Shown here: positions 8,406 through 30,062 of the stretch, one piece after another | Layout of the letters: every line of letters starts with the position of its first letter | Numbering within the stretch: the first letter of the stretch is position 1 | IMG/VR virus record: IMGVR_UViG_3300032275_000010 | Location: 1-35,419 of that record | From: a virus | Lineage: Duplodnaviria > Caudoviricetes | Strand: one strand, 5' to 3' | Length of the DNA: 35,419 nt | Notes under the pieces: generated by a model | The model's input: the letters and a program-made list of their open reading frames with translations, nothing else | What the model was told of the DNA's origin: nothing | The model's database searches: none | Made by a program: the position numbers and the translations under genes

Positions 8406-8636
8406 TTATTGCCTGATTCGAGGTGCAAATTCTTGACTTTTTGCGTTTACCTGCGCCCAGAGGGCTATGAGCCGCTCGCCATCCTCGTATCGTGGCTCCC
8501 CAATATCCCGCCAATAGCGTACCGTGTTTTGCGTAACGCCGATTGCAGCAGCGAGGCGGCAATAGGTATATCCCCGCTGGTTTAGATCAGCGATCAGCCT
8601 AAACCAGTCGATACGCTCATTGCGCTCATTTCTCAA
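8406..8636 (-). CDS. HTH DNA-binding protein, candidate late regulator
   Basis: 'LAAAIGVTQNTVRYW...EPRY..GERLIALW' helix-turn-helix. Confidence 0.7.
   Translation of the reverse strand: MRNERNERIDWFRLIADLNQRGYTYCRLAAAIGVTQNTVRYWRDIGEPRYEDGERLIALWAQVNAKSQEFAPRIRQ
8423..8440 (-). promoter_or_regulatory. Putative late promoter/activator site, copy 2
   Basis: AAAGTCAAGAATTTGCAC followed by AATAAT, upstream of the portal operon. Confidence 0.7.
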
Positions 8637-11607: not shown

Positions 11608-11674
11608 GCATAACCAGTCAATCCAGCGGGACTAGCCGATAAAGCTTGGCTAGATGGTTAACTTTACGTTAGGG
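11608..11674 (+). mobile_element. attC-like site A1
   Basis: GCATAAC ... CTAGCC/GGCTAG stem ... TTAACTTTAC-GTTAGGG. L-box pairing is imperfect. Confidence 0.7.
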
Positions 11675-11871
11675 CGCAAGTATGCAGTACACCGGATAAT
11701 CACTTGCCCTTCCGTAGTTGTGCCGATCACGGGCATTGTTTCAAACTCCATGTGGCTGCAATTTGCGTTTACCCATATACATGTCGCGCACATCCCGCCT
11801 TTCGGTTGATAGCATTCGCGCTCTAACTTTACATTCAAGCGGAGCGCGTTTAACGTGGTTCCTTCAGTCAT
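11650..11871 (-). CDS. Cassette-borne Cys-rich hypothetical protein
   Basis: GAGG RBS and ATG lie inside attC A2. Contains 'YQPKGGMCATC'. Ends PNVKLTI inside A1. Confidence 0.75.
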   Translation of the reverse strand: MTEGTTLNALRLNVKLERECYQPKGGMCATCIWVNANCSHMEFETMPVIGTTTEGQVIIRCTAYLRPNVKLTI

Positions 11872-11907
11872 AATTTTTCCTCGCGCCCGCTTAATTCCAC
11901 GTTAGTC
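11821..11907 (+). mobile_element. attC-like site A2
   Basis: CTCTAAC-tttac-ATTCAAGCGGAGCGCG ... CGCGCCCGCTTAAT-tccac-GTTAGTC, with the extrahelical TT(C)AA/TTAA asymmetry of aadA-type attC. Confidence 0.85.
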
Positions 11908-12054
11908 CCTGCCATCTGATTCTTCTGTAAAATGTTTTCCATCATGCCAGTAAACATTAATTGTTACCCTTGCTCTCATGTTCTTTGCAATCCATTCGAC
12001 AAAATATGAAATTAAATTTTCCAAGCTTGGTGGTGGTATAAAAAGTTTTGACAT
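11902..12054 (-). CDS. Cassette-borne 50-aa protein (not in ORF track)
   Basis: AAGGAG RBS. MSKLFIPPPSLENLISYFVEWIAKNMRARVTINVYWHDGKHFTEESDGRD, with the TAA stop inside the GTTA core of A2. Confidence 0.7.
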   Translation of the reverse strand: MSKLFIPPPSLENLISYFVEWIAKNMRARVTINVYWHDGKHFTEESDGRD

Positions 12055-12078: not shown

Positions 12079-12141
12079 AGCTAACCCGGCGTTCAACCAG
12101 ACCGCCCAACAGCGGGGCGGCTGGTTAACTCTACGTTAGAG
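12079..12141 (+). mobile_element. attC-like site A3
   Basis: AGCTAAC-ccggc-GTTCAACCAGACCGCCC-aacagcg-GGGCGGCTGGTTAAC-tctac-GTTAGAG, a textbook 63-bp attC layout. Confidence 0.9.
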
Positions 12142-12147
12142 CGCATG

Positions 12148-12363
12148 TTAAACTTTTGTATTGTCCATTGCCCTTATAACGCAGGAACGTATAGCCTGCT
12201 TTGCAATGTCTTTGCCCTGGCTGAATACCAAATCAAGCGCATTGCTCAACATGTGGTAATCAGCGAAGCATTGAAGTCGAATAGAAAAATCCATCCCTTC
12301 AATCTTAAATTTAGCAATTCCATTTTCATTTTCTATATTGCCTATCCATTCGCTTCGGTACAT
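12148..12363 (-). CDS. Cassette-borne hypothetical protein
   Basis: GGAGAG RBS before ATG at 12363. Lies between A3 and A4. Confidence 0.65.
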   Translation of the reverse strand: MYRSEWIGNIENENGIAKFKIEGMDFSIRLQCFADYHMLSNALDLVFSQGKDIAKQAIRSCVIRAMDNTKV

Positions 12364-12386: not shown

Positions 12387-12436
12387 CTTTAACCCATCGG
12401 TGAAGCGGGAGCCGCAAAAGCGCGGCCCTTAATTTA
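12387..12436 (+). mobile_element. Truncated attC-like site A4
   Basis: CTTTAAC-ccatc-GGTGAAGCGGGAGCCGC-aaaagc-GCGGCCCTTAA. Resembles B3 but lacks the final GTT. Confidence 0.65.
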
Positions 12437-12760
12437 CTTCTGCTTCGCTGCCATCAGTTTACGGTAGCAAGTCCATCTGTGCCCGTATCCATTGTCTAGC
12501 ATCCACACCATTAAACGCATCTGGTCTATCGGATTTTTCCATCGAAGCCGCGGCATTTTTGCCAGTACTTTCATTTCATTAAATGTTGCTTTTTGAAACT
12601 GAGCAATTCCCACACTGATACCGCCTGGCCCATCTGCATCATCGCCAACTGCGTTATATCTACCACCAGATTCACATTCGATAATATCAACCATCAGGCT
12701 TGCATCCATTGCTTGCGCGTCAAAACAAAATAACGTACAACAGATGATTAATATTCGCAT
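12434..12760 (-). CDS. Lytic transglycosylase/SLT-like protein with signal peptide
   Basis: 'IIECESGG' catalytic Glu motif, 'GIAQF', C-terminal 'WTC', and a hydrophobic N-terminus ending AQA. Confidence 0.75.
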   Translation of the reverse strand: MRILIICCTLFCFDAQAMDASLMVDIIECESGGRYNAVGDDADGPGGISVGIAQFQKATFNEMKVLAKMPRLRWKNPIDQMRLMVWMLDNGYGHRWTCYRKLMAAKQK

Positions 12761-17912: not shown

Positions 17913-17938
17913 TGATCAAGACCTAAATGGAGATAACC

Positions 17939-18142
17939 ATGAAGTATGAATATAGAACCGGAGTGCCGATTGAAGATTGCCCATTTTGCGCTAACTCATG
18001 GGGGCCACCACAACCAGAACAAGCGCCTGATAATGGCCGCTGGCACGTCGGATGCATGAACCCGCATTGCGGAGCGAGCAGCGGATTTTGCGATTCCGAA
18101 AACGAGGCAATTGAACATTGGAACAAACGGCCTAACGTGTAG
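17939..18142 (+). CDS. Lar-family restriction-alleviation-like zinc-ribbon protein
   Basis: 'CPFC...CMNPHCGA...EAIEHWNKR' and GGAG RBS. Ends PNV inside attC B1. Confidence 0.75.
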   Translation: MKYEYRTGVPIEDCPFCANSWGPPQPEQAPDNGRWHVGCMNPHCGASSGFCDSENEAIEHWNKRPNV

Positions 18143-18209
18143 ATAAGAGGCGCACCGATTAGCAGCAACACCCCGACGATATTACGTCTGGTTGATGTAA
18201 CTGTTAGGC
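18130..18209 (-). mobile_element. attC-like site B1
   Basis: Minus strand GCCTAAC-agttac-ATCAA ... TTAT-ctacac-GTTAGGC. The inner stem is weak. Confidence 0.72.
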
Positions 18210-18230
18210 AAATTACGAAAAGGTAGGTAT

Positions 18231-18437
18231 ATGAAAGTGTGGATTCTGACAAGCGAATACAACGACTACGACCAGCATGGTGAGGTCTTTGAAGGGGTAT
18301 TTGCAAAAAAACCAACGTCTGCGCAAATACAAAAGTTCTGTGGAATAACCGAGAGCGGCGCAGATCATGTACTAGCAGGTGGGGGCAGACAGAGACACGA
18401 GGATAGCTGGTACATCTTAAAAGAATACGATGCCTAA
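18231..18437 (+). CDS. Cassette-borne hypothetical protein
   Basis: AGGTAGG RBS. The stop TAA is part of the GCCTAAC of B2. Confidence 0.75.
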   Translation: MKVWILTSEYNDYDQHGEVFEGVFAKKPTSAQIQKFCGITESGADHVLAGGGRQRHEDSWYILKEYDA

Positions 18438-18554
18438 CGTTAAATTAAAGGGCTGCCCCATAAAAGAAAAGATAACAGAGAAATGAAACCTGATGACGAA
18501 TTGAATAAAACAAAAGACGCAGAGGGGCAGTCACACTTGAATGGTGGGTTGGGT
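18432..18554 (-). mobile_element. attC-like site B2, loop carries RBS and ATG
   Basis: Minus strand ACCCAAC-ccacc-ATTCAAGTGTGACTGCCCC ... GGGGCAGCCCTTTAAT-ttaac-GTTAGGC. Confidence 0.82.
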
Positions 18555-18668
18555 ATCACTTCATGCAAAACTTGCAAAGATAAATCTTGCCATAGCAAGT
18601 ATTTTTATGAGCGTTTCATGGCTATACCGTTTTGCGGCGCCCACACAGACTATGAGCCTAGAGCATGA
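18483..18668 (+). CDS. Cassette-borne Cys-rich small protein
   Basis: Starts inside the B2 loop, with leader 'EGQSHLNGGLG'. Confidence 0.65.
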   Translation: MKPDDELNKTKDAEGQSHLNGGLGITSCKTCKDKSCHSKYFYERFMAIPFCGAHTDYEPRA

Positions 18669-18669
18669 T

Positions 18670-18734
18670 ACCCAACGTAGAGGTAAGGGGCTGACGCGCT
18701 TCTGCGGCAGTCCCGCTTCACCGCCGGGTTTGGC
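18670..18734 (-). mobile_element. attC-like site B3
   Basis: Minus strand GCCAAAC-ccggc-GGTGAAGCGGGACTGCCGC-agaagc-GCGTCAGCCCCTTACC-tctac-GTTGGGT, 65 bp. Confidence 0.87.
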
Positions 18735-18748
18735 AATGAAAGGATGAT

Positions 18749-19090
18749 ATGAGCTTATTTCAGTGTGATAACTGCGGGTGTGCAGAGAATACAGCACTCG
18801 CGGCGCAAAGCGTACCAGAAGTATTTGCACAGTTTTACGACTGGGAAGGAATTGAAGAAAAAAAGGCCATGAGACTGTGCAGCGCATGTGGGCCGGAGAA
18901 ATATTATGATGGTACGCCGACTGAATATGGTAAATGGCACGGGCGATTTGCGCGAACATTTTTACCTCTCGGGATGTTTAAAACAGCGAGAAATGGAAAC
19001 CTTGAACATAAGGAAACCGGCGAACAGGATTATCATAAATATGCAGTGCCCAACGATAAATTAAGGGGCTGCCCCATAGAGAAAGGATAA
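18749..19090 (+). CDS. Cassette-borne hypothetical protein with two CxxC pairs
   Basis: 'MSLFQCDNCGCAENTAL...LCSACGP...GKWHGRF'. The C-terminus reads into B4. Confidence 0.8.
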   Translation: MSLFQCDNCGCAENTALAAQSVPEVFAQFYDWEGIEEKKAMRLCSACGPEKYYDGTPTEYGKWHGRFARTFLPLGMFKTARNGNLEHKETGEQDYHKYAVPNDKLRGCPIEKG

Positions 19091-19169
19091 CAGAGAAATG
19101 AATAATCAGACTGAAGTGAATGACAAAAAACACGTAGAGGGGCAGTCCCGCTTGAATGTAGGGTTGGAT
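19048..19169 (-). mobile_element. attC-like site B4 (paralog of B2), loop carries RBS and ATG
   Basis: Plus strand GCCCAAC-gataa-ATTAAGGGGCTGCCCC ... GGGGCAGTCCCGCTTGAAT-gtagg-GTTGGAT. Confidence 0.85.
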
Positions 19170-19451
19170 GCCATAGCATACATGATTTATTTATCGACGT
19201 GGACAAATGAAAATGAGTCTATAGAGAATTTCGATGATGCACTGTTACAGAAACTTTATGCTAAATGGATAGATAACTGGCTACCTGCAAAACATGAAGC
19301 ACATTGCGGCGATTGCATCGGAATAGCAGCATCATGCTTGCGTTGCAACGTAGAGCAAATATACACGGATGCGGAGAGAATAATCAAGGCGTCCAACGTA
19401 GAGTTAACCAGCTTGCCATTAACTGAAGGAGAAAATAGCAATGACAAATGA
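19098..19451 (+). CDS. Cassette-borne hypothetical protein
   Basis: Starts in the B4 loop (leader EGQSRLNVGLD), contains 'HCGDC...SCLRC', and ends inside B5. Confidence 0.75.
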   Translation: MNNQTEVNDKKHVEGQSRLNVGLDAIAYMIYLSTWTNENESIENFDDALLQKLYAKWIDNWLPAKHEAHCGDCIGIAASCLRCNVEQIYTDAERIIKASNVELTSLPLTEGENSNDK

Positions 19452-19521
19452 AACGATAGCAGCACCACAACAAACTAGCAAGCCAGCAGATGGCGAGTCC
19501 GAGTTGAACGCAAGGTTAGAA
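19391..19521 (-). mobile_element. attC-like site B5, loop carries RBS and ATG
   Basis: Plus strand GTCCAAC-gtaga-GTTAACCAGCTTGCCAT ... ATGGCGAGTCCGAGTTGAAC-gcaag-GTTAGAA. Confidence 0.83.
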
Positions 19522-19761
19522 CTCGAACTTTCAGCCCTCAATATGGCTGTGGATGTTTTCGCCGCACACATGAAGGTGAAGCTCGCAGAAAAAGCAGCTG
19601 CAGGTTGGTCAGGATGGAATGTCAACGGGTACTCATCAATAATTGCGTCCCGATTACTACATAAAGCGAACCTTGTAGAGTATGACCGGAAGCAGGCTGT
19701 CGATGTGGCAAACTTAGCCATGATGCTGTGGTATAAATCAGAGAGTTCTAACGTAGAATAG
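19441..19761 (+). CDS. Cassette-borne phage protein (possible all-alpha NTP-pyrophosphatase-like fold)
   Basis: AAGGAG RBS in the B5 loop. 'FAAHMKVKLAEK...GWSGW...VDVANLAMMLW' motif. The fold call is tentative. Confidence 0.7.
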   Translation: MTNETIAAPQQTSKPADGESELNARLELELSALNMAVDVFAAHMKVKLAEKAAAGWSGWNVNGYSSIIASRLLHKANLVEYDRKQAVDVANLAMMLWYKSESSNVE

Positions 19762-19765
19762 ACGA
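19746..19765 (-). mobile_element. attC/attI-like half site B6
   Basis: TTCTAACGTAGAATAG matches the arm of the other sites, but no partner arm is visible. Confidence 0.55.
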
Positions 19766-19782
19766 CATAAATTTCTTATAAT

Positions 19783-23424: not shown

Positions 23425-23440
23425 GTGCAATTTCTTGACT
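23425..23440 (-). promoter_or_regulatory. Putative late promoter/activator site, copy 3
   Basis: AGTCAAGAAATTGCAC, then CATAAT 11 bp later, upstream of the tailspike GGAGG RBS. Confidence 0.68.
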
Positions 23441-25088
23441 ATCTGGAAAACTCAGCAATGTGCGTGCCTGTATTGGGCCGCCAGCTTACTATTTTTTGCT
23501 TGCCGTCATCATCCTTTACTACAACCTTGATACGCTCCGGCGTAGCGGAAATCGCCCCTGCAATGGCATCCATGTAGTCATCCATCTGATTTTGCGTGTC
23601 TGGTTGCCAGTCCTTCATTTGATCCCATGTCGGGCCAGCAAGTACGTCAACATGGGCCCAGAGCATATTTGAATTTAATGGCGGCTCGATAGATTCCAGG
23701 ATGCGCTTGTTCTTGTTCGTGAAAGCGGCCTCCTCCTGTACCCCGCAAATCAAGTGCCGCTGTTTCAGGCAGGCCATTAGCCACTTTGGGGCGAAGGCGC
23801 CCACGCCATTCGTTTCAACCACGATCCGCGGGATATGATATTTTTCTACTAAATCGCAAATCTGCCAGACCTGGCCGCCAATCACCTTGATAACTGATCC
23901 ATGTTCCAGAAGTTCTGCTACCTCGCCAGTGAGTTGCGCGGCCTTGTGGATATAACGCCGCCCCTGTTCATCCTGCAGAATCACCGCAAAGGCTGACACG
24001 TCGCTATTGAGTTTGGCAGCTGATGGATCCCAACGCGCAGCCATGCCCATTATTTTGGCGCTGCCAAGATACATCGATGCCGTTTTGTTGGCATACCGAA
24101 TTTCAGGTTCAACCTGGTAAGGAATGATTTTTGAAGGGTCTAGCCGCGTCTCTCCGATTGGCTTCGATTCCAGCATATACTGAGAATCCCAGCCATTCAG
24201 CGTCTTGGTGCCCTTGCGCCGTACCTCAATTTCAGCCCGGTTAAAACGCTCTGGCCATACGCACTTGCTATAAATGTCGATCACCACACACGGCGGCGCG
24301 GCGAAGACAATATCTGTACCTTCTATCCGGTAATCAGTTTTTTCAACCAGCATACGTCCAAACTTACCAATTCCAGATAGCACGTAAATCCCGTCTTTTC
24401 CGACTGGATGCGTGAAAGAATAGCGCGTCTTGACGTTCGTAATTTCATAGCGGGTTGCATACTCAAATAGAGATATTTTCAGTGACGCGGCGCCGGCTTC
24501 GATCTGTTCGGTATAGATCGAGTCATATGTGTGCGGTGTGCCAATGTATGTTTTCTGCCCGCCAGGCGTCAAAATATGGGTAGGTTCTTCGATCTTTTCG
24601 CGGATCATCATCCTGGCATCAGCCGTCTTGATGTTCTTCGGTACTTCAATATCATCAAAATCCACCGCATCCGCACGCGAACCTGTCGAGTTTGAATTGA
24701 TCCCGACCGCCTCCATGCTGGGATTACGGGCATCATCTGAGCCGTTAATCCAGAAGCTGAATGCGCCAGGCTTACGCGGAAGCATGCCCTTGCATAATGG
24801 GTGCCTGCGCAGCACGGCAAGAGTGTCGCGGGTCAGTTTACCGGCCAGCTTGTCATCAGCCGCATAGACTAGTGATTTATGAGTGCGGTCTCGATATAAG
24901 CGCCATGCCTTATATACTGCGTAAATCGTGGACTTTGCCGCACCGCGGAACACCATCAGCACGCGCACATTTGAATCGCATTCGTCGATCCAGACACAAA
25001 TCCGAACGTGTAATAGGGGTACGTCCCAGCCTTTAAACTTAGCCCAGATCAGGAAAAAGGTCAGGAAAGATACTTTAGGGGTTTCCAT
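23439..25088 (-). CDS. terL: Terminase large subunit
   Basis: Walker A 'FRGAAKST', Walker B 'GSRADAVDFDDIE', 'YIGTP', nuclease 'WDPS', 'VVETNG' and 'DDYMDA'. Confidence 0.92.
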   Translation of the reverse strand: METPKVSFLTFFLIWAKFKGWDVPLLHVRICVWIDECDSNVRVLMVFRGAAKSTIYAVYKAWRLYRDRTHKSLVYAADDKLAGKLTRDTLAVLRRHPLCKGMLPRKPGAFSFWINGSDDARNPSMEAVGINSNSTGSRADAVDFDDIEVPKNIKTADARMMIREKIEEPTHILTPGGQKTYIGTPHTYDSIYTEQIEAGAASLKISLFEYATRYEITNVKTRYSFTHPVGKDGIYVLSGIGKFGRMLVEKTDYRIEGTDIVFAAPPCVVIDIYSKCVWPERFNRAEIEVRRKGTKTLNGWDSQYMLESKPIGETRLDPSKIIPYQVEPEIRYANKTASMYLGSAKIMGMAARWDPSAAKLNSDVSAFAVILQDEQGRRYIHKAAQLTGEVAELLEHGSVIKVIGGQVWQICDLVEKYHIPRIVVETNGVGAFAPKWLMACLKQRHLICGVQEEAAFTNKNKRILESIEPPLNSNMLWAHVDVLAGPTWDQMKDWQPDTQNQMDDYMDAIAGAISATPERIKVVVKDDDGKQKIVSWRPNTGTHIAEFSR

Positions 25089-25470
25089 GAACCGATTTTT
25101 TTACTTTTGGCTTGTCGGCTTCCCGGTCAAGTAATTCGCGCAGCAACTTTGCACCCTCTTTTTCAGCCGCTTTTACTTCGTCATCAAGCAAGCGCTCTTC
25201 ACCGGTCTTTACCCCTGGCGGCGCTCTGCCCATTTCTGTCTGTGCTTTAAGGTATACCGCCTGAGTGATCAGCGTCACCATACGCCCGAGAACAGAGAGG
25301 GTAGACAGCGCAACCTTGCGGCACCATACCGCATCTCCTCGGTCTTCCTGTGTTAAGTCCATCGGCAAAACGCCATGCCCAACCCAGTTTTTAGGATCAG
25401 CATCAGACAAGGCAACCTCTGCCAGTTTTTCACTGAGTTCGTTTAATCGTTTCAGTTGATCAGGAGTCAT
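25075..25470 (-). CDS. Putative terminase small subunit
   Basis: 131-aa helical protein overlapping the terL start. Positional inference. Confidence 0.6.
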   Translation of the reverse strand: MTPDQLKRLNELSEKLAEVALSDADPKNWVGHGVLPMDLTQEDRGDAVWCRKVALSTLSVLGRMVTLITQAVYLKAQTEMGRAPPGVKTGEERLLDDEVKAAEKEGAKLLRELLDREADKPKVKKSVHGNP

Positions 25471-28400
25471 TTTTCAATCCTTTTCATAATTTCATCAGCA
25501 ATTCGCTGCATTTCAGTTGCCCGTTGCTCTGGTGGTATTGCCTGCACAGTGGCAACTTCCTGCGCCTTGTGAAACACTTTTTCATAAACCTGTTTTTTTA
25601 CCATGTCTGGCATATTGTCCCAAGCCGGTTGATTGACAATTGGCACCAGTATTTCATGCGCCATCTGGCCGGATAGTATGGTGAAGTCATGTTGCTGTTG
25701 TTGAGTCAATTCAACCTTGCCTATATCCTTTTGACCCATCGCAGACAATTCGATTTTCTTCGGTGCCAGCGCAGATGCTACGCCTAGCCTAGCAGCCTCA
25801 GTACGCACCTTGTCTGTACTGATCGTTGTTTCAGTTACAGGAGATACAATTCCAAGCCGTTCTTTGCTTTGTATTGGTTCACCGAACATATCAAGTTTTG
25901 GTAAGAGGTCGCCACGCAGTCCAGGAATTCTTGCCTCAACTGCTTGGCGCACGCTATCGACTTCACGGGTGAAAGGATCAAGCATCGCAGTCGGTTGCGC
26001 GACAATATTCGGCACGGTTGACCCGGCGAAAGATTGAATCAGGCGTGGCCCGAAGCGTGAGGGATCAGACATTGCATTCATAACGTTGGTAATACCCTGT
26101 AAAAATGTTTGACTCGTAATCGCATTGGCAAAAGCTACAGACAACATTTTCGGCACCCTATCCGATTCGCTATCATTCATGTGCTCCCAAACCTCGGCAA
26201 TATCTGAAGCCATCCCCATCAGTGTCCCAATAGGCTGCAAGCGCTGGTAGTTGTACCATGTATCACCGATTTTTATAGAGTACGGCTGCCAGCCAGCAGC
26301 AAGCTGAGCTCTGCGCTTTGCCGGATCAGGATCACCGGCACCGCTGATATGTCCATCCAGTGCGAAAGCGAACACGGTAGACATAATTGCAGAACCAACC
26401 AGAACTTCAGCCATTGCACGGTCAGCTTCAATACCACCAGATGCAAGAGCCGTGCGCCATTCTTTGACTGCTGGCGCAAATGGTGTCAACCTAATCAGTT
26501 CTTTTGCAATGTTACCCGGTGTCCTGATAAACGGCACCATAAATTCAAGATGAAATTCCTTAACCAGTTTTTGCACAGCCTGGCCTTTGGGGCCTAAATC
26601 CATGTTAAATGTGTATCGTTTCCCAGCCGTGTCGATTGCTTGCTGCATTTCGGTTGGCGGGTTCTGCATTATATCCACAACCCTTTCTTTGAATTCCCTT
26701 GTTCTAATATCTATGCCTTCGATTATCGCTTGCCGTGTTGCTAGTGAATAGGCTTCGCTTCGTTCGTTTATAGTTTTGAATAATGCATCTTCAGCACCTA
26801 GCGCACGGAATGGAAGCCGGATAATTTGACCCTTTTCCCCATCAATTGCATGGCGGAATGATTCAGATTTACCCTGCTCTTGCAAAGCATCTTCATTGGC
26901 TATCATTGCCGCCGCAATCTTTGCGCCGTCCTTGGCCCCCTCAATCATGCCTGTAATACGAGCTAGCGGCTCATGGATTGAAATACGTTCTTCAACGGGT
27001 GCACCACGCAGCTTGCCGATTGCTGCAGCAACTGTATCTATCGGCAAACGCATAGTAGCAAAAGTACCATTACCCATTAGGTTGGCGACATGGGTAACTG
27101 GACCAGATAGAATTCCAGCCTTCCACCCTTCTACCAGCTTTTCCCAAGTGGTTGCCTTTGATGCTTCAGCTGCAAATTTTGCCATGCCTTCTTTGGTGCC
27201 AATCTCCCCAATCATGCGTGCAAGTTCTTGCGGATCATGGCCGTATTGCGCAAATAGGCTTTGCGTATTCTTCGCAATATCACTCATTTGCTTCGCAGCT
27301 TTTCGGGCATTTAAGGCGCGCGCAATCTCGGCCCCATTACCCTGGTCAATCGCTTGCAGAAATGCAAGGCTTTCGATTGCCACAACTAGCGCCCTGTCAT
27401 CTTCGGGTGTTGCCTCTGCGGCTTTAGCGCGGACATTACGGGCAGCCTCCGCCACATCAAAAGCGGCTTTCTGCGCCATTGCCTCCCAAGCCATCGCCTT
27501 CCCAGCAAGATTTTCAAAGTCTCCCCCGCCAGCCTTCAGCCCTGAATTCTTTATGATATCCATCGCCTTCGCTTGCGTAGCGTCCCATGATTCCTTGCCG
27601 CGTAATTCAGCAATTTGCTTTTCAAACACCTGAGAAATACGGGCATGGATAGCCTTCACATCTTCGGGACTATCAACATATTTGTAATTGATATGGTTCG
27701 GGGCTTTTTCAGAAGTGATCTGCCCGAGTGATTGATTCTCAATCACCTGATTAACATTCAATTCGCGGTCAGTCCCGAAAAGGACATTTTCTATCATCCT
27801 CTCACGTGCTGCGGGGATATAGGCGCGGGGTATTCCAGTGTCGATTGATTCTCTGATCAGCGGGTCTACTGCTTCGGCCGGCTTTGCTTGCGCTTTGTCA
27901 AATTCCTTTCTTGCTGCATAATCTACTCTTCGATTATCAGTTATATCTGGGTTCTTTGGATCAAATAATCCGCTGTTGTCTGTAGCGGATTTTATTTGCG
28001 ATGATGAAAATACAACCCATGCCTCTGATTCTTCAGAGAAATTGCCATCTGGGAAGTGCACGCTGTCAAACCCTTTTTTTTGCGCGTACTTTACAATATC
28101 AATGTTATTATCGAAATCAAGCGCTTCCCCATTAGCAAACGGCTTTAGCTTGTTATTGCGATAGTCAAATGTTACTGTCAACGGGTTTTTTGAATTAAGA
28201 TAGACCTTGTAAATCTCGCCATCCTGACTTTTTGCATAGCTATTAGCATATTCAATGCTGCGCGTAAACCATGCCCCAGGTTCATCTCTGCCTGGGGTTA
28301 TTTCAGTGAGTCCTGCTGTCATGCTGCCGTGGTACATAACCAGCGGATTACCCTCTGCATCTACTACCTTACTATCACCAAACCAGCTCTTAAATTCTGG

Positions 28401-30062
28401 CGTGTCAATTTGTTTTATTGTCTCCGGTCTTGCAGCTCCGGTCGCATCAGGTATTCCACCAGGTAATTTTGCTGCTGCTCCGATGTCATTCCCTGCATTT
28501 CCTGTGTCCGCTTTTCCGCCAGTCGTTGCAGCATCAACTCTGTCGAACCTGAGGCCGCGAGCTTTTCTGTCGGCTTTATCTGTGTACTGATTCGCTTCTG
28601 CTGACTTAAAGTCTTTTCCTGTCCCATAGCTGAACCCTACGCCTTTCTTGTGAACCTGATTCCCGTTTTTATCGGTATAGTAAAACCCTTCCTCCATGAA
28701 TCTATCACGGGCGATATTCATTACTTTATTGGCATCTGCTTCTGTATGAAACTGAGCCTTGAATTCGTCGCCTGATATGTGGTAGACCTCTTGAGTTACG
28801 TTTTCAATCTGTTTCGCCATTGCTTTAATAGCAGCATCACCTGCATCATGACCGAGTGTGTCATTTAAGGTTTTCAGTCCATCAATGTCAGCGAATACCT
28901 TAACCGGCAATTCTTGAGCAACGTCAAGCGCTGCTTTATTTGGTATCCCTGTTAATGCACTGGTATAGTGCCTGCGGTCATGAGCAATTAATTCCTGAAG
29001 TCTTTCATCAGGAGACATGCTTTCATAGCGGGTACGGCGTTCTGTTTCTGTGCTACGTCGATTCTGGAAAAGCAAATCATTTTTTATTGTTGGATCAGCC
29101 ATTGCATCAGCTGCAACCTTACCCGGTTCGATACCTGTTTTCTCCATTATAGTACTAAGTTTACCGGTCAAAGCCTCTGTATCCTTACCCTCTCCTATGG
29201 CTATTGCGGCATTTGTAATATCCTTTGTCTTTGCCATGCCCGGATTACCACGCGGCCCTATGACACCTATACCAGCCGCAAATACACCATTCAGAAGCAT
29301 ATCCTCGAAAGAGTACTGCGAGCGCATGTCTACGGGCATGTTTGAATTCATATATTCCCTGGATAATTCGCCCATTGCAATGCCTGATGCAAAGCTCGTA
29401 CCGACACGCGTCGCCATGCTGCCGCCGATATTAAGCGGAAGAATTATATTTGCGGTAGTTGAAAGATATGATGCTTTTGCTGCATTGAATGCAGCCATTC
29501 CATCATTGGTATGATCGTAAACTTTCTGTCCAACATCTATTGCGCTGGCAAGTGCAGGCGCAGCAGCAGCACCAGTTCCATGTCGGATCATCTCAGCAAT
29601 AGCGGGCCACATTTCATTTGCAGCCATAACCGAACCAGTTGCTTTGGCTGGTGCAGACAGATACATTTCTGCGACCTGCCCCGCCATATTTCCAATAGTG
29701 TGAGAAACCTTGCCAATAATCCCCGCATCAGGGCGAATCTCAGAGCGTGAGATTGCAGCATCAAGAGGTGCGACTGTGTAATCAAAATATTTTGTTGTCA
29801 GATCAGTGCCGAAAGCGTGATCAAATAATCTAGGAAGTATAGAACCGGCCAGCGCTGGAGCCTTCCAAAATGTACCAGCTGCCTTGTTTAGACCGCGCAT
29901 TGTGTCTGGAAACATTTTCGCCAGATCATTTACAATATGAGATTCATTATCATTTATTATCGGCTTTGCTGTGGATAAGTCAAAGCCTGTATTTTGTGCC
30001 TCTGTTGGCTGCAGGGCTGTATTTTCTGCAATAGGTTGTGCTGTTGCCAAGTCAAACGCCAT
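25467..30062 (-). CDS. Large internal virion/ejection polyvalent protein with GGDEF-like, ART-like and LPD38-like regions
   Basis: 1531 aa in the gp16 position, with N-terminal FDLxTAxPI repeats. 'LTGIPNK...FADIDGLKTLNDTLGHDAGD...SGDEF', and 'FKSWFGDSKVVD..GNPLVMYHGS...WFT...ESE...QIKS'. Confidence 0.85.
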   Translation of the reverse strand: MAFDLATAQPIAENTALQPTEAQNTGFDLSTAKPIINDNESHIVNDLAKMFPDTMRGLNKAAGTFWKAPALAGSILPRLFDHAFGTDLTTKYFDYTVAPLDAAISRSEIRPDAGIIGKVSHTIGNMAGQVAEMYLSAPAKATGSVMAANEMWPAIAEMIRHGTGAAAAPALASAIDVGQKVYDHTNDGMAAFNAAKASYLSTTANIILPLNIGGSMATRVGTSFASGIAMGELSREYMNSNMPVDMRSQYSFEDMLLNGVFAAGIGVIGPRGNPGMAKTKDITNAAIAIGEGKDTEALTGKLSTIMEKTGIEPGKVAADAMADPTIKNDLLFQNRRSTETERRTRYESMSPDERLQELIAHDRRHYTSALTGIPNKAALDVAQELPVKVFADIDGLKTLNDTLGHDAGDAAIKAMAKQIENVTQEVYHISGDEFKAQFHTEADANKVMNIARDRFMEEGFYYTDKNGNQVHKKGVGFSYGTGKDFKSAEANQYTDKADRKARGLRFDRVDAATTGGKADTGNAGNDIGAAAKLPGGIPDATGAARPETIKQIDTPEFKSWFGDSKVVDAEGNPLVMYHGSMTAGLTEITPGRDEPGAWFTRSIEYANSYAKSQDGEIYKVYLNSKNPLTVTFDYRNNKLKPFANGEALDFDNNIDIVKYAQKKGFDSVHFPDGNFSEESEAWVVFSSSQIKSATDNSGLFDPKNPDITDNRRVDYAARKEFDKAQAKPAEAVDPLIRESIDTGIPRAYIPAARERMIENVLFGTDRELNVNQVIENQSLGQITSEKAPNHINYKYVDSPEDVKAIHARISQVFEKQIAELRGKESWDATQAKAMDIIKNSGLKAGGGDFENLAGKAMAWEAMAQKAAFDVAEAARNVRAKAAEATPEDDRALVVAIESLAFLQAIDQGNGAEIARALNARKAAKQMSDIAKNTQSLFAQYGHDPQELARMIGEIGTKEGMAKFAAEASKATTWEKLVEGWKAGILSGPVTHVANLMGNGTFATMRLPIDTVAAAIGKLRGAPVEERISIHEPLARITGMIEGAKDGAKIAAAMIANEDALQEQGKSESFRHAIDGEKGQIIRLPFRALGAEDALFKTINERSEAYSLATRQAIIEGIDIRTREFKERVVDIMQNPPTEMQQAIDTAGKRYTFNMDLGPKGQAVQKLVKEFHLEFMVPFIRTPGNIAKELIRLTPFAPAVKEWRTALASGGIEADRAMAEVLVGSAIMSTVFAFALDGHISGAGDPDPAKRRAQLAAGWQPYSIKIGDTWYNYQRLQPIGTLMGMASDIAEVWEHMNDSESDRVPKMLSVAFANAITSQTFLQGITNVMNAMSDPSRFGPRLIQSFAGSTVPNIVAQPTAMLDPFTREVDSVRQAVEARIPGLRGDLLPKLDMFGEPIQSKERLGIVSPVTETTISTDKVRTEAARLGVASALAPKKIELSAMGQKDIGKVELTQQQQHDFTILSGQMAHEILVPIVNQPAWDNMPDMVKKQVYEKVFHKAQEVATVQAIPPEQRATEMQRIADEIMKRIEK

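Follow-up and report, generated by a model that had tools for sequence, protein, structure and literature searches.

The locus examined here raises the question of whether an attC site can form the front end of a gene, with the start codon inside its hairpin loop, and still travel as part of an integron-type cassette. The window, i.e., the whole stretch of DNA analyzed, is the complete 35,419-base virus record IMGVR_UViG_3300032275_000010. An initial annotation had proposed that long attC loops in it hold an RBS and an ATG, that unrelated proteins thereby share attC-encoded N termini, and that the site body leaves with the gene it initiates. The analysis below suggests that the sites are probably integron attC sites in inverted orientation, that the long ones likely start genes and couple them to their upstream neighbors, and that a host IntI likely moves core, leader, and gene as a cassette.

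Results

Two arrays of attC-type sites in a podovirus genome

The window is a complete podovirus genome with a 127-nt terminal repeat. Pfam matches among the 49 ORFs scanned included capsid, portal, T7-like terminase, and tail proteins, as well as a DnaC-like ATPase, a PDDEXK exonuclease, and an AAA_24 ATPase. A tyrosine recombinase or intI was sought as well, and no PF00589 match was obtained at E <= 1 anywhere in the complete genome. An array of small genes spaced by attC-type sites closes each of two divergent early gene blocks. The right array (B1 to B6) occupies positions 18130 to 19780 on the plus strand, and the left array (A4 to A1) occupies positions 12445 to 11608 on the minus strand. 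With five full sites on the right, three on the left, and no intI, the arrays are CALINs as defined (at least two clustered attC sites, no intI). The gene just upstream of the right array (17927-18142, +) gave a weak Lar-like restriction-alleviation match, and different cores come after it in other contigs; the gene just upstream of the left array (12434-12760, -) encodes an SLT-like transglycosylase.

Two further features of the genome were recorded. A 16- to 18-nt repeat is present in three copies (1651-1668, 8423-8440, and 23425-23442; 0.01 expected by chance), all close to where minus-strand late gene blocks begin, and is a candidate late promoter or regulator site. The virion gene block encodes a 1531-aa protein (25467-30062, -) with ART-PolyVal and GGDEF domains, which is of the polyvalent-protein type and is possibly injected into the bacterial host.

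The sites have attC boxes and inverted polarity

Terminal boxes RYYYAAC and GTTRRRY, 52 to 150 nt apart, were present in B1 to B5 and A1 to A3 and were incomplete in B6 and A4. On the gene strand, the L boxes of B2, B4, B5, A2, and A3 pair as TTAA/TTGAA, with one extra base. By the strand rule given in the part of PMC5027507 (Nivina et al. 2016) drawn on here, the extrahelical base opposite the AAC marks the bottom strand of an attC site. On the gene strand, the extra base is in the 3' arm and faces the AAC, which makes this strand the bottom (recombinogenic) one in both arrays. The inverted polarity claimed in the initial annotation was thus upheld. Because both arrays are inverted despite lying on opposite genome strands, polarity follows transcription and not the replicon. 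The ordinary cassette rule, a gene on the top strand followed by its own attC, failed: all cassette genes in the window are on the bottom strand, with the site first. Rfam gave no match at the window sites.

An arm pattern blind to loop content found 19 viral loci, 66 genome-contig loci, and at least 125 metagenome loci (about 420 stretches). Among 124 bounded cassettes in viral contigs, 35 were inverted, 6 were standard, 56 were ambiguous, and 27 were unscored or neither. The 104 bounded cassettes in genome contigs comprised 8 inverted, 57 standard, 18 ambiguous, and 21 neither; six of these eight inverted cassettes are on L034, L040, and L072, and L034 and L040 have phage-type genes.

Bottom strands of attC sites are described as purine-rich in the portion of PMC5027507 used here, and such a strand would be a plausible preadaptation for an RBS. 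With regard to attI and Pc, B6 stands at the attI position but is a bare box, and 4 promoter-like sites were counted against 4.3 expected. On that count, the loop as a promoter was rejected.

Long sites of the window hold candidate starts in their loops

B1 (18130-18209, +) is a short inverted attC-type site with weak L-box pairing. It lies before cassette gene 1 (18231-18437, +; 68 aa, phrog_6933), whose RBS and ATG are outside the site and whose stop, TAA, is within the 5' box of B2. B2 (18432-18554, +), a long site of 123 nt, has a loop ATG at 18483 that is overlapped, as ATGA, by the stop of the frame that reads the AAC of the box as Asn (the AAC frame). From this ATG runs cassette gene 2 (18483-18668, +; 61 aa), a 22-aa site-encoded leader and a Cys-rich body with no family match, overlapped by an alternative ORF (18541-18747). 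B3 (18670-18734, +) is a short site with the 3' box GTTT, and again the RBS and ATG are outside. The frame of cassette gene 3 (18749-19090, +; 113 aa, phrog_11861) continues past the AAC of B4 and ends 7 nt short of the ATG at 19098, which lies with an SD in the open loop of B4 (19048-19169, +; 122 nt, 71% identity to B2). Cassette gene 4 (19098-19451, +; 117 aa) has a 22-aa leader and reads through B5 (19391-19521, +; 131 nt), its stop overlapping the first codons of gene 5. An SD and the ATG at 19441 lie in B5, and cassette gene 5 (19441-19761, +; 106 aa) has a 25-aa leader and a phrog_8298 body from about residue 28. The array ends with the half site B6 (19746-19780, +), which has a 5' box only, the exact complement of the B5 3' box, and is either a primary target or a decayed site.

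The left array, on the minus strand, begins with A4 (12387-12445), a decayed site that kept its stem and 3' box and lost the AAC of its 5' box. A 71-aa cassette gene from the ORF list (12148-12363) lies between it and A3 (12079-12141), a short 63-nt site with the RBS outside. The next cassette gene (11902-12054) encodes 50 aa. A2 (11821-11907), a medium site of 87 nt, carries GAGG and the ATG at 11871 in its loop, with the AAC-frame stop overlapping the ATG. The 73-aa cassette gene from this ATG (11650-11871) has a 15-aa site-encoded leader and reads through the AAC of A1 (11608-11674), a short site that ends the leftward array with no cassette gene after it.

The four loop ATGs reported earlier (18483, 19098, 19441, and 11871) were thus confirmed inside loops, with ORFs of 61, 117, 106, and 73 aa, and the leader peptides quoted for them (EGQSHLNGGLG, EGQSRLNVGLD, DGESELNARLE, and NALRLNVKLE) proved correct. 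The RBS and ATG of the short sites B1, B3, and A3 are just outside the site, as claimed. The further claim of a purine-rich RBS in all long loops was true of B4 (AAGGA, 10-nt spacing), B5 (AAGGAG), and A2 (GAGG) but not of B2, which has only an A-rich tract and no canonical SD. In predicted mRNA folds, the loop start regions are mostly unpaired (0.65 to 0.80, against 0.47 to 0.53 overall).

Loop starts recur in other phage sites

Sites of 84 nt or more were classed as long, the viral set including the four of the window. A loop ATG opening at least 35 codons past the site was found in 29 of 35 long viral sites, against 6.2 ± 2.3 in 1000 loop shuffles (maximum 14), and a loop ATG plus an SD was found in 22, against 0.95 ± 0.97; these counts are of sites related by descent, scored with a matrix trained on the seed sites. 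Long sites in bacterial genome contigs had a loop ATG in 27 of 115 cases, 7 with an SD (Fisher p = 3e-10 versus viral). Among distinct seed sites, 15 of 17 qualified, the two exceptions being a site whose loop ATG is frameshifted and a site with a closed stem whose start lies outside. In metagenomes, among the matches listed, 24 of 38 open-loop sites qualified (23 with an SD), as did 29 of 125 closed ones (11 with an SD). With a second arm pattern, 73 loci were found, which left 67 distinct sites once those at locus edges were dropped; of these, 30 had a loop start, against 8.1 by shuffle, and 22 also had an SD, against 1.3. Co-occurrence of leader motifs with attC arms in other genomes, a check named in the initial annotation, was therefore found. 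The exact 18-nt B4 arm had no match in viral contigs, scans of viral contigs for loci related to the B5 and A2 genes gave none that was confirmed, and site DNA searched against cultured phages gave chance-level matches or none, one search matching gene 3 alone.

An out-of-frame case was also seen. In L001/L004, a site at position 1197 of the scanned strand has a loop SD and an ATG out of frame with the downstream gene, and the short frame from this ATG ends in the 3' arm; this is either a frameshift or a case of reinitiation as with ORF-11.

We also considered mobile cassettes whose genes truly start downstream of the site, with the loop ORF as a short upstream frame or an annotation artifact and with proteins lacking the leader. 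Leader-free homologs (P0004 and XPQ49870.1) would fit such downstream starts, as would B2 without its SD and the 37 of 67 sites of the second, mid-length arm family that have no loop start. At B4, the ATG that occurs six codons beyond the site is retained in P0015, and there an internal start may be the one used. Against this reading stand the 22 long sites with an SD and an in-frame ATG, where shuffling gives about one, and the first internal ATG or GTG of the 29 loop-start genes, which is preceded by an SD in 3 and missing from 3. In cultured phages, alignments of the B5 body with its homologs begin at residue 28, and P0004 is without the leader; the first internal ATG of the B5 gene comes after conserved residues, is without an SD, and is replaced by Lys in P0002, and the start is therefore expected in the site. 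The same holds for A2, where an internal start would cut conserved residues. Downstream starts as a general explanation are therefore improbable, and the loop ATGs are likely the best start candidates. Database protein starts are gene-caller output and hence carry no independent evidence for start positions.

The leaders are site DNA read as codons

Because a loop start lies inside a shared site, unrelated genes are predicted to agree in their first 15 to 25 amino acids. In P0009, the B4 leader is followed directly by a DUF551 domain, and two unrelated bodies (P0005 and P0013) carry the B5 leader. The leader motif is the DNA of the 3' arm read as codons, and of the arm frames, one has a stop and two are open. 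In the arm family of the window, the LNxxL frame is used in 25 of 29 cases; in the second family, the other frame is used in 20 and the LNxxL frame in 10 (n = 30). With both open frames in use, the idea that the GTT box always fixes the leader in one frame was rejected. The shared attC-encoded N termini noted earlier are thus likely and site encoded, but what is conserved is arm DNA in one of two open frames and not a peptide. A search with a leader-peptide profile, also proposed earlier, gave eight matches at E <= 0.001, five of them N-terminal and three internal repeats in very long proteins; with only five of eight N-terminal, the profile is a weak detector, and DNA patterns are far better. 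Since homologs without the site lack the shared N termini, these are probably a tolerated by-product. An AlphaFold model of the B5 protein was set aside (mean pLDDT 59, residues 1 to 15 under 50).

Read-through frames mostly end near the loop start

The ends of the genes upstream of viral sites were analyzed together with the loop starts. Of these genes, 23 stop before or in the 5' box, 17 read through with AAC as Asn, and 1 uses another frame. In 69 open-loop sites with a loop start (a set that leaves out four Saprospiraceae loci), the AAC-frame stop is at most 12 nt from the loop ATG in 57, against 20.7 ± 3.6 in shuffles (maximum 32), and overlaps it as ATGA in 21, against 10.4 ± 2.8 (maximum 20). 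The loop ATG itself was in the AAC frame in none of the 69. After clustering to 23 loop families, 17 kept the coupling, against 6.0 ± 1.9. The second arm family had it in 27 of 30, with the ATG in the AAC frame in 3. Since the read-through frame ends beside the loop ATG, the loop looks like a stop-start coupler.

In the window, as described above, the end of gene 3 lies close before the start in B4, and gene 4 runs into the start in B5. The ATGA overlap is present in B2 and A2, whose current upstream genes, however, terminate in the box, so that only two of the four window loop starts are read into today. Stop-start coupling in the loop, which the initial annotation had missed, is likely a function of these sites judging from reading frames.

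Cassettes run from AAC to AAC, and cores are also exchanged

The expectation that the site body leaves with the gene it initiates was borne out in several comparisons. In L072, a cassette is duplicated within the contig and is identical from the AAC via core, leader, and gene to the next AAC, and the cassette shared by L268 and L288 likewise runs AAC to AAC with core and leader included. P0002, P0015, and P0017 keep leader and body, and their tails change just past the Asn of the next AAC. Phage G001 has the 50-aa gene of the A3 cassette at about 99% identity, which stops at the AAC of the next site. Contigs of runs X1 and X3, which are short pieces that may come from related phages (X1 may be the source of the window itself), track the window to the AAC at 18136, 18137, and 19055 and then enter other cores. 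Two features of run X1 were discounted: a gap over 19056 to about 19394 is no finding, only about 87% of the run having been read, and a 217-nt skip at 18453-18671, with a side of 21 letters, is explained by arm similarity.

The expectation did not stand in full, however, since cores were found swapped on identical genes. L168 and L020 share a gene, its downstream DNA, and the 3' arm and differ in loop and leader. The A3 cassette, nearly identical in G001, has a different loop there, and the A3 core is unchanged in L320 before a methyltransferase-like gene (gene identity judged by eye). Among near-identical phage cassette pairs whose context changed on both sides or inside the site, core swaps account for two of four. 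The start signal and leader are therefore not permanently bound to a gene, and the L168/L020 and A3 comparisons point to a second exchange point in the 3' arm.

Box complementarity links neighboring sites. In the window, the 3' box and the next 5' box are perfectly complementary for B2-B3 and B5-B6; B3, B4, and A2 have one mismatch to the next box against two to their own, and B1 and A3 are ties. The 3' box fits the next site better in 82 of 124 viral cassettes (own site 9, tie 33) and in 67 of 104 genome cassettes (own 6, tie 31). Since both crossovers predict it, complementarity links two gene ends and cannot tell the side of the core, and its use as proof of a bottom-strand crossover was rejected on logic.

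Folding of the sites varied. P(AAC:GTT) was 0.96 for B1, 0.89 for B4 and A2, 0.62 for A3, 0.52 for B2, 0.14 for B3, 0.02 for B5, and 0 for A1 and A4; B5, A1, and A4, which fold poorly on their own (0.02 or less), may thus be inactive. These values bear on the possibility that the sites are fossils: the arrays would be integron made, the long sites would no longer recombine, the loops would have decayed into A-rich start regions, and exchange would proceed by short homology between arms via the phage exonuclease and ATPase. The three barely folding sites agree with this, as does the far weaker folding of long phage sites than of genome-contig ones (median -0.13 versus -0.26 kcal/mol per nt). 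The core swaps lie within shared arm sequence, both enzymes (PDDEXK and AAA_24) are encoded, and P0018, a relative of the A2 protein, has dropped the 3' arm in frame and kept the loop start, a cassette fixed in place. Fossil sites are nevertheless unlikely: junctions are mostly at the AAC, even with unrelated next cores; box complementarity is maintained as in bacterial arrays; and B4 and A2 still pair AAC with GTT. We therefore continue with sites that are probably mobile cassette ends.

A host integron integrase is the likely recombinase

Sites of the same pattern are found beside integron integrases, in standard orientation, in L036, L039, and L076 (above the TIGR02249 cutoff) and in L023 (below it on the fragment tested). 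In the one host family searched, that of a Gallionella bin, 29 of 151 genomes matched A3 and 45 matched the B4 query, nearly all in its 3' arm. Most of these matches are 63-nt sites with genes on the opposite strand, and IntI adjoins them in bins G076, G164, and G053. A host IntI acting in trans is the simplest reading, and the sequence evidence makes IntI the likely recombinase.

A non-IntI recombinase, phage encoded or from a helper element and acting with opposite polarity, was weighed as well. A tyrosine recombinase is present in 2 of 15 other array-bearing virus records, of which only 4 are at least 90% complete, and the matched fragments gave no integron-integrase match. The complete genome studied here has none, and the side of the crossover fits IntI bottom-strand chemistry. 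We consider such an enzyme very improbable and retain the host IntI.

Two sets of bacterial bins are of separate interest. Four loci on one Saprospiraceae bin contig (L061, L062, L065, and L074) form a bacterial array, mostly in standard orientation, of 120-nt sites with open A-rich loops, bottom-strand ATGs in mixed frames, and rare SDs; these are a possible precursor state of the phage sites. Phage-type leader sites are carried by L020, L028, L034, and L040, from bins labeled Ignavibacteriaceae, Moraniibacteriota, Paceibacterota, and Ohtaekwangia; three of the four have phage-family genes, and the contigs are prophages or misbinned phage contigs.

Discussion

Inversion of the sites, loop ATG and SD motifs above chance, read-through stops, and AAC-to-AAC cassettes are each evident in the DNA. 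A working model can be framed on them. The open loop would start the downstream gene and couple it to the upstream one, and a host integron integrase would move site core, leader, and gene as one cassette. Since the crossover at the AAC is upstream of the loop, a start would arrive with the cassette wherever it inserts, and an upstream gene left without a stop by the junction would terminate at that start and never fuse with it. A second, less defined exchange in the 3' arm, by top-strand recombination at the GTT or by short-homology recombination with the phage's own enzymes, would allow one leader to occur on several genes and one gene to carry various leaders. We infer from this pattern that the ATGs are in use, that IntI is the enzyme, and that these sites are still active.

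An extension of this model is that the site core is an autonomous plug-in, cut at the AAC on one strand and at the GTT on the other, and that phages graft this stop-start adaptor onto accessory genes, thus building cassettes. Relatives of gene 3 in viral contigs are without site arms at 23 of 23 loci (150 nt upstream and 130 nt downstream inspected, one locus being short), so ordinary phage genes appear to become cassettes. Together with the same core before unrelated genes and different cores before identical genes, this makes a plug-in core conceivable, though doubtful. If true, it would make a route of cassette genesis visible and amount to gene exchange run by phages and driven by the host integrase.

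The arrangement amounts to an integron cassette turned around, in which the recombination hairpin is the front end of the gene and gives it start and coupling; with both supplied by the hairpin, genes would still be expressed however they were reshuffled. The arrangement also suggests that environmental phages harbor a pool of cassettes, which would make use of the host integrase. Recurring N- and C-terminal peptides in otherwise unrelated phage proteins would be by-products of a DNA site and can mislead protein clustering. To our knowledge, how cassettes are first made is an open question in the field; phage genes that are cassettes here and siteless elsewhere offer a testable handle on it.

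Compared with known systems, the arrays share with integron cassettes, as treated in the part of PMC5027507 used here, the RYYYAAC/GTTRRRY boxes, the L-box stem with an extrahelical base, complementary ends, the AAC crossover, and a purine-rich bottom strand, and the same arm family is found beside IntI. They differ in that genes are on the bottom strand, the site precedes the gene, and the genome has no intI; long loops are open and A-rich instead of paired, and start signals and the first 15 to 25 codons are inside the site. Phage CALINs are likewise attC clusters without an integrase, and IntI1 recombined five of six tested sites (Qi et al. 2023, PMC9892861). In the portions of that paper covered here, the arrays are described as bacterial typical or divergent, with no inverted polarity rule, loop starts, or shared leaders, and "start codon" occurs 0 times in its main text; its supplements could hold such sites unremarked. 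A literature search covering few subscription journals found no description of inverted phage arrays with loop starts.

The initial annotation knew of no such architecture in bacterial integrons, which appears to hold for this form but not for translation inside att sites as such. According to the part of PMC8876359 consulted, ORF-11/ORF-17 in attI1 and short ORFs in attC raise expression of the next cassette by coupling or reinitiation. Those are short, separate top-strand ORFs in the platform or in the site of the upstream cassette; in the phage arrays, by contrast, a bottom-strand start is joined in frame to the gene of its own cassette and would move along with that gene. SALINs, as far as the part of bioRxiv 10.1101/2022.09.11.507474 used here describes them, arise by IntI insertion at GWT sites in bacterial chromosomes with no strand bias. 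They offer a route by which a host integrase could place attC sites in attI-less DNA, and the phage arrays differ from them in being strongly biased to inverted polarity. The locus thus works like an integron cassette array, falls within the CALIN definition, and departs from the polarity of ordinary cassettes.
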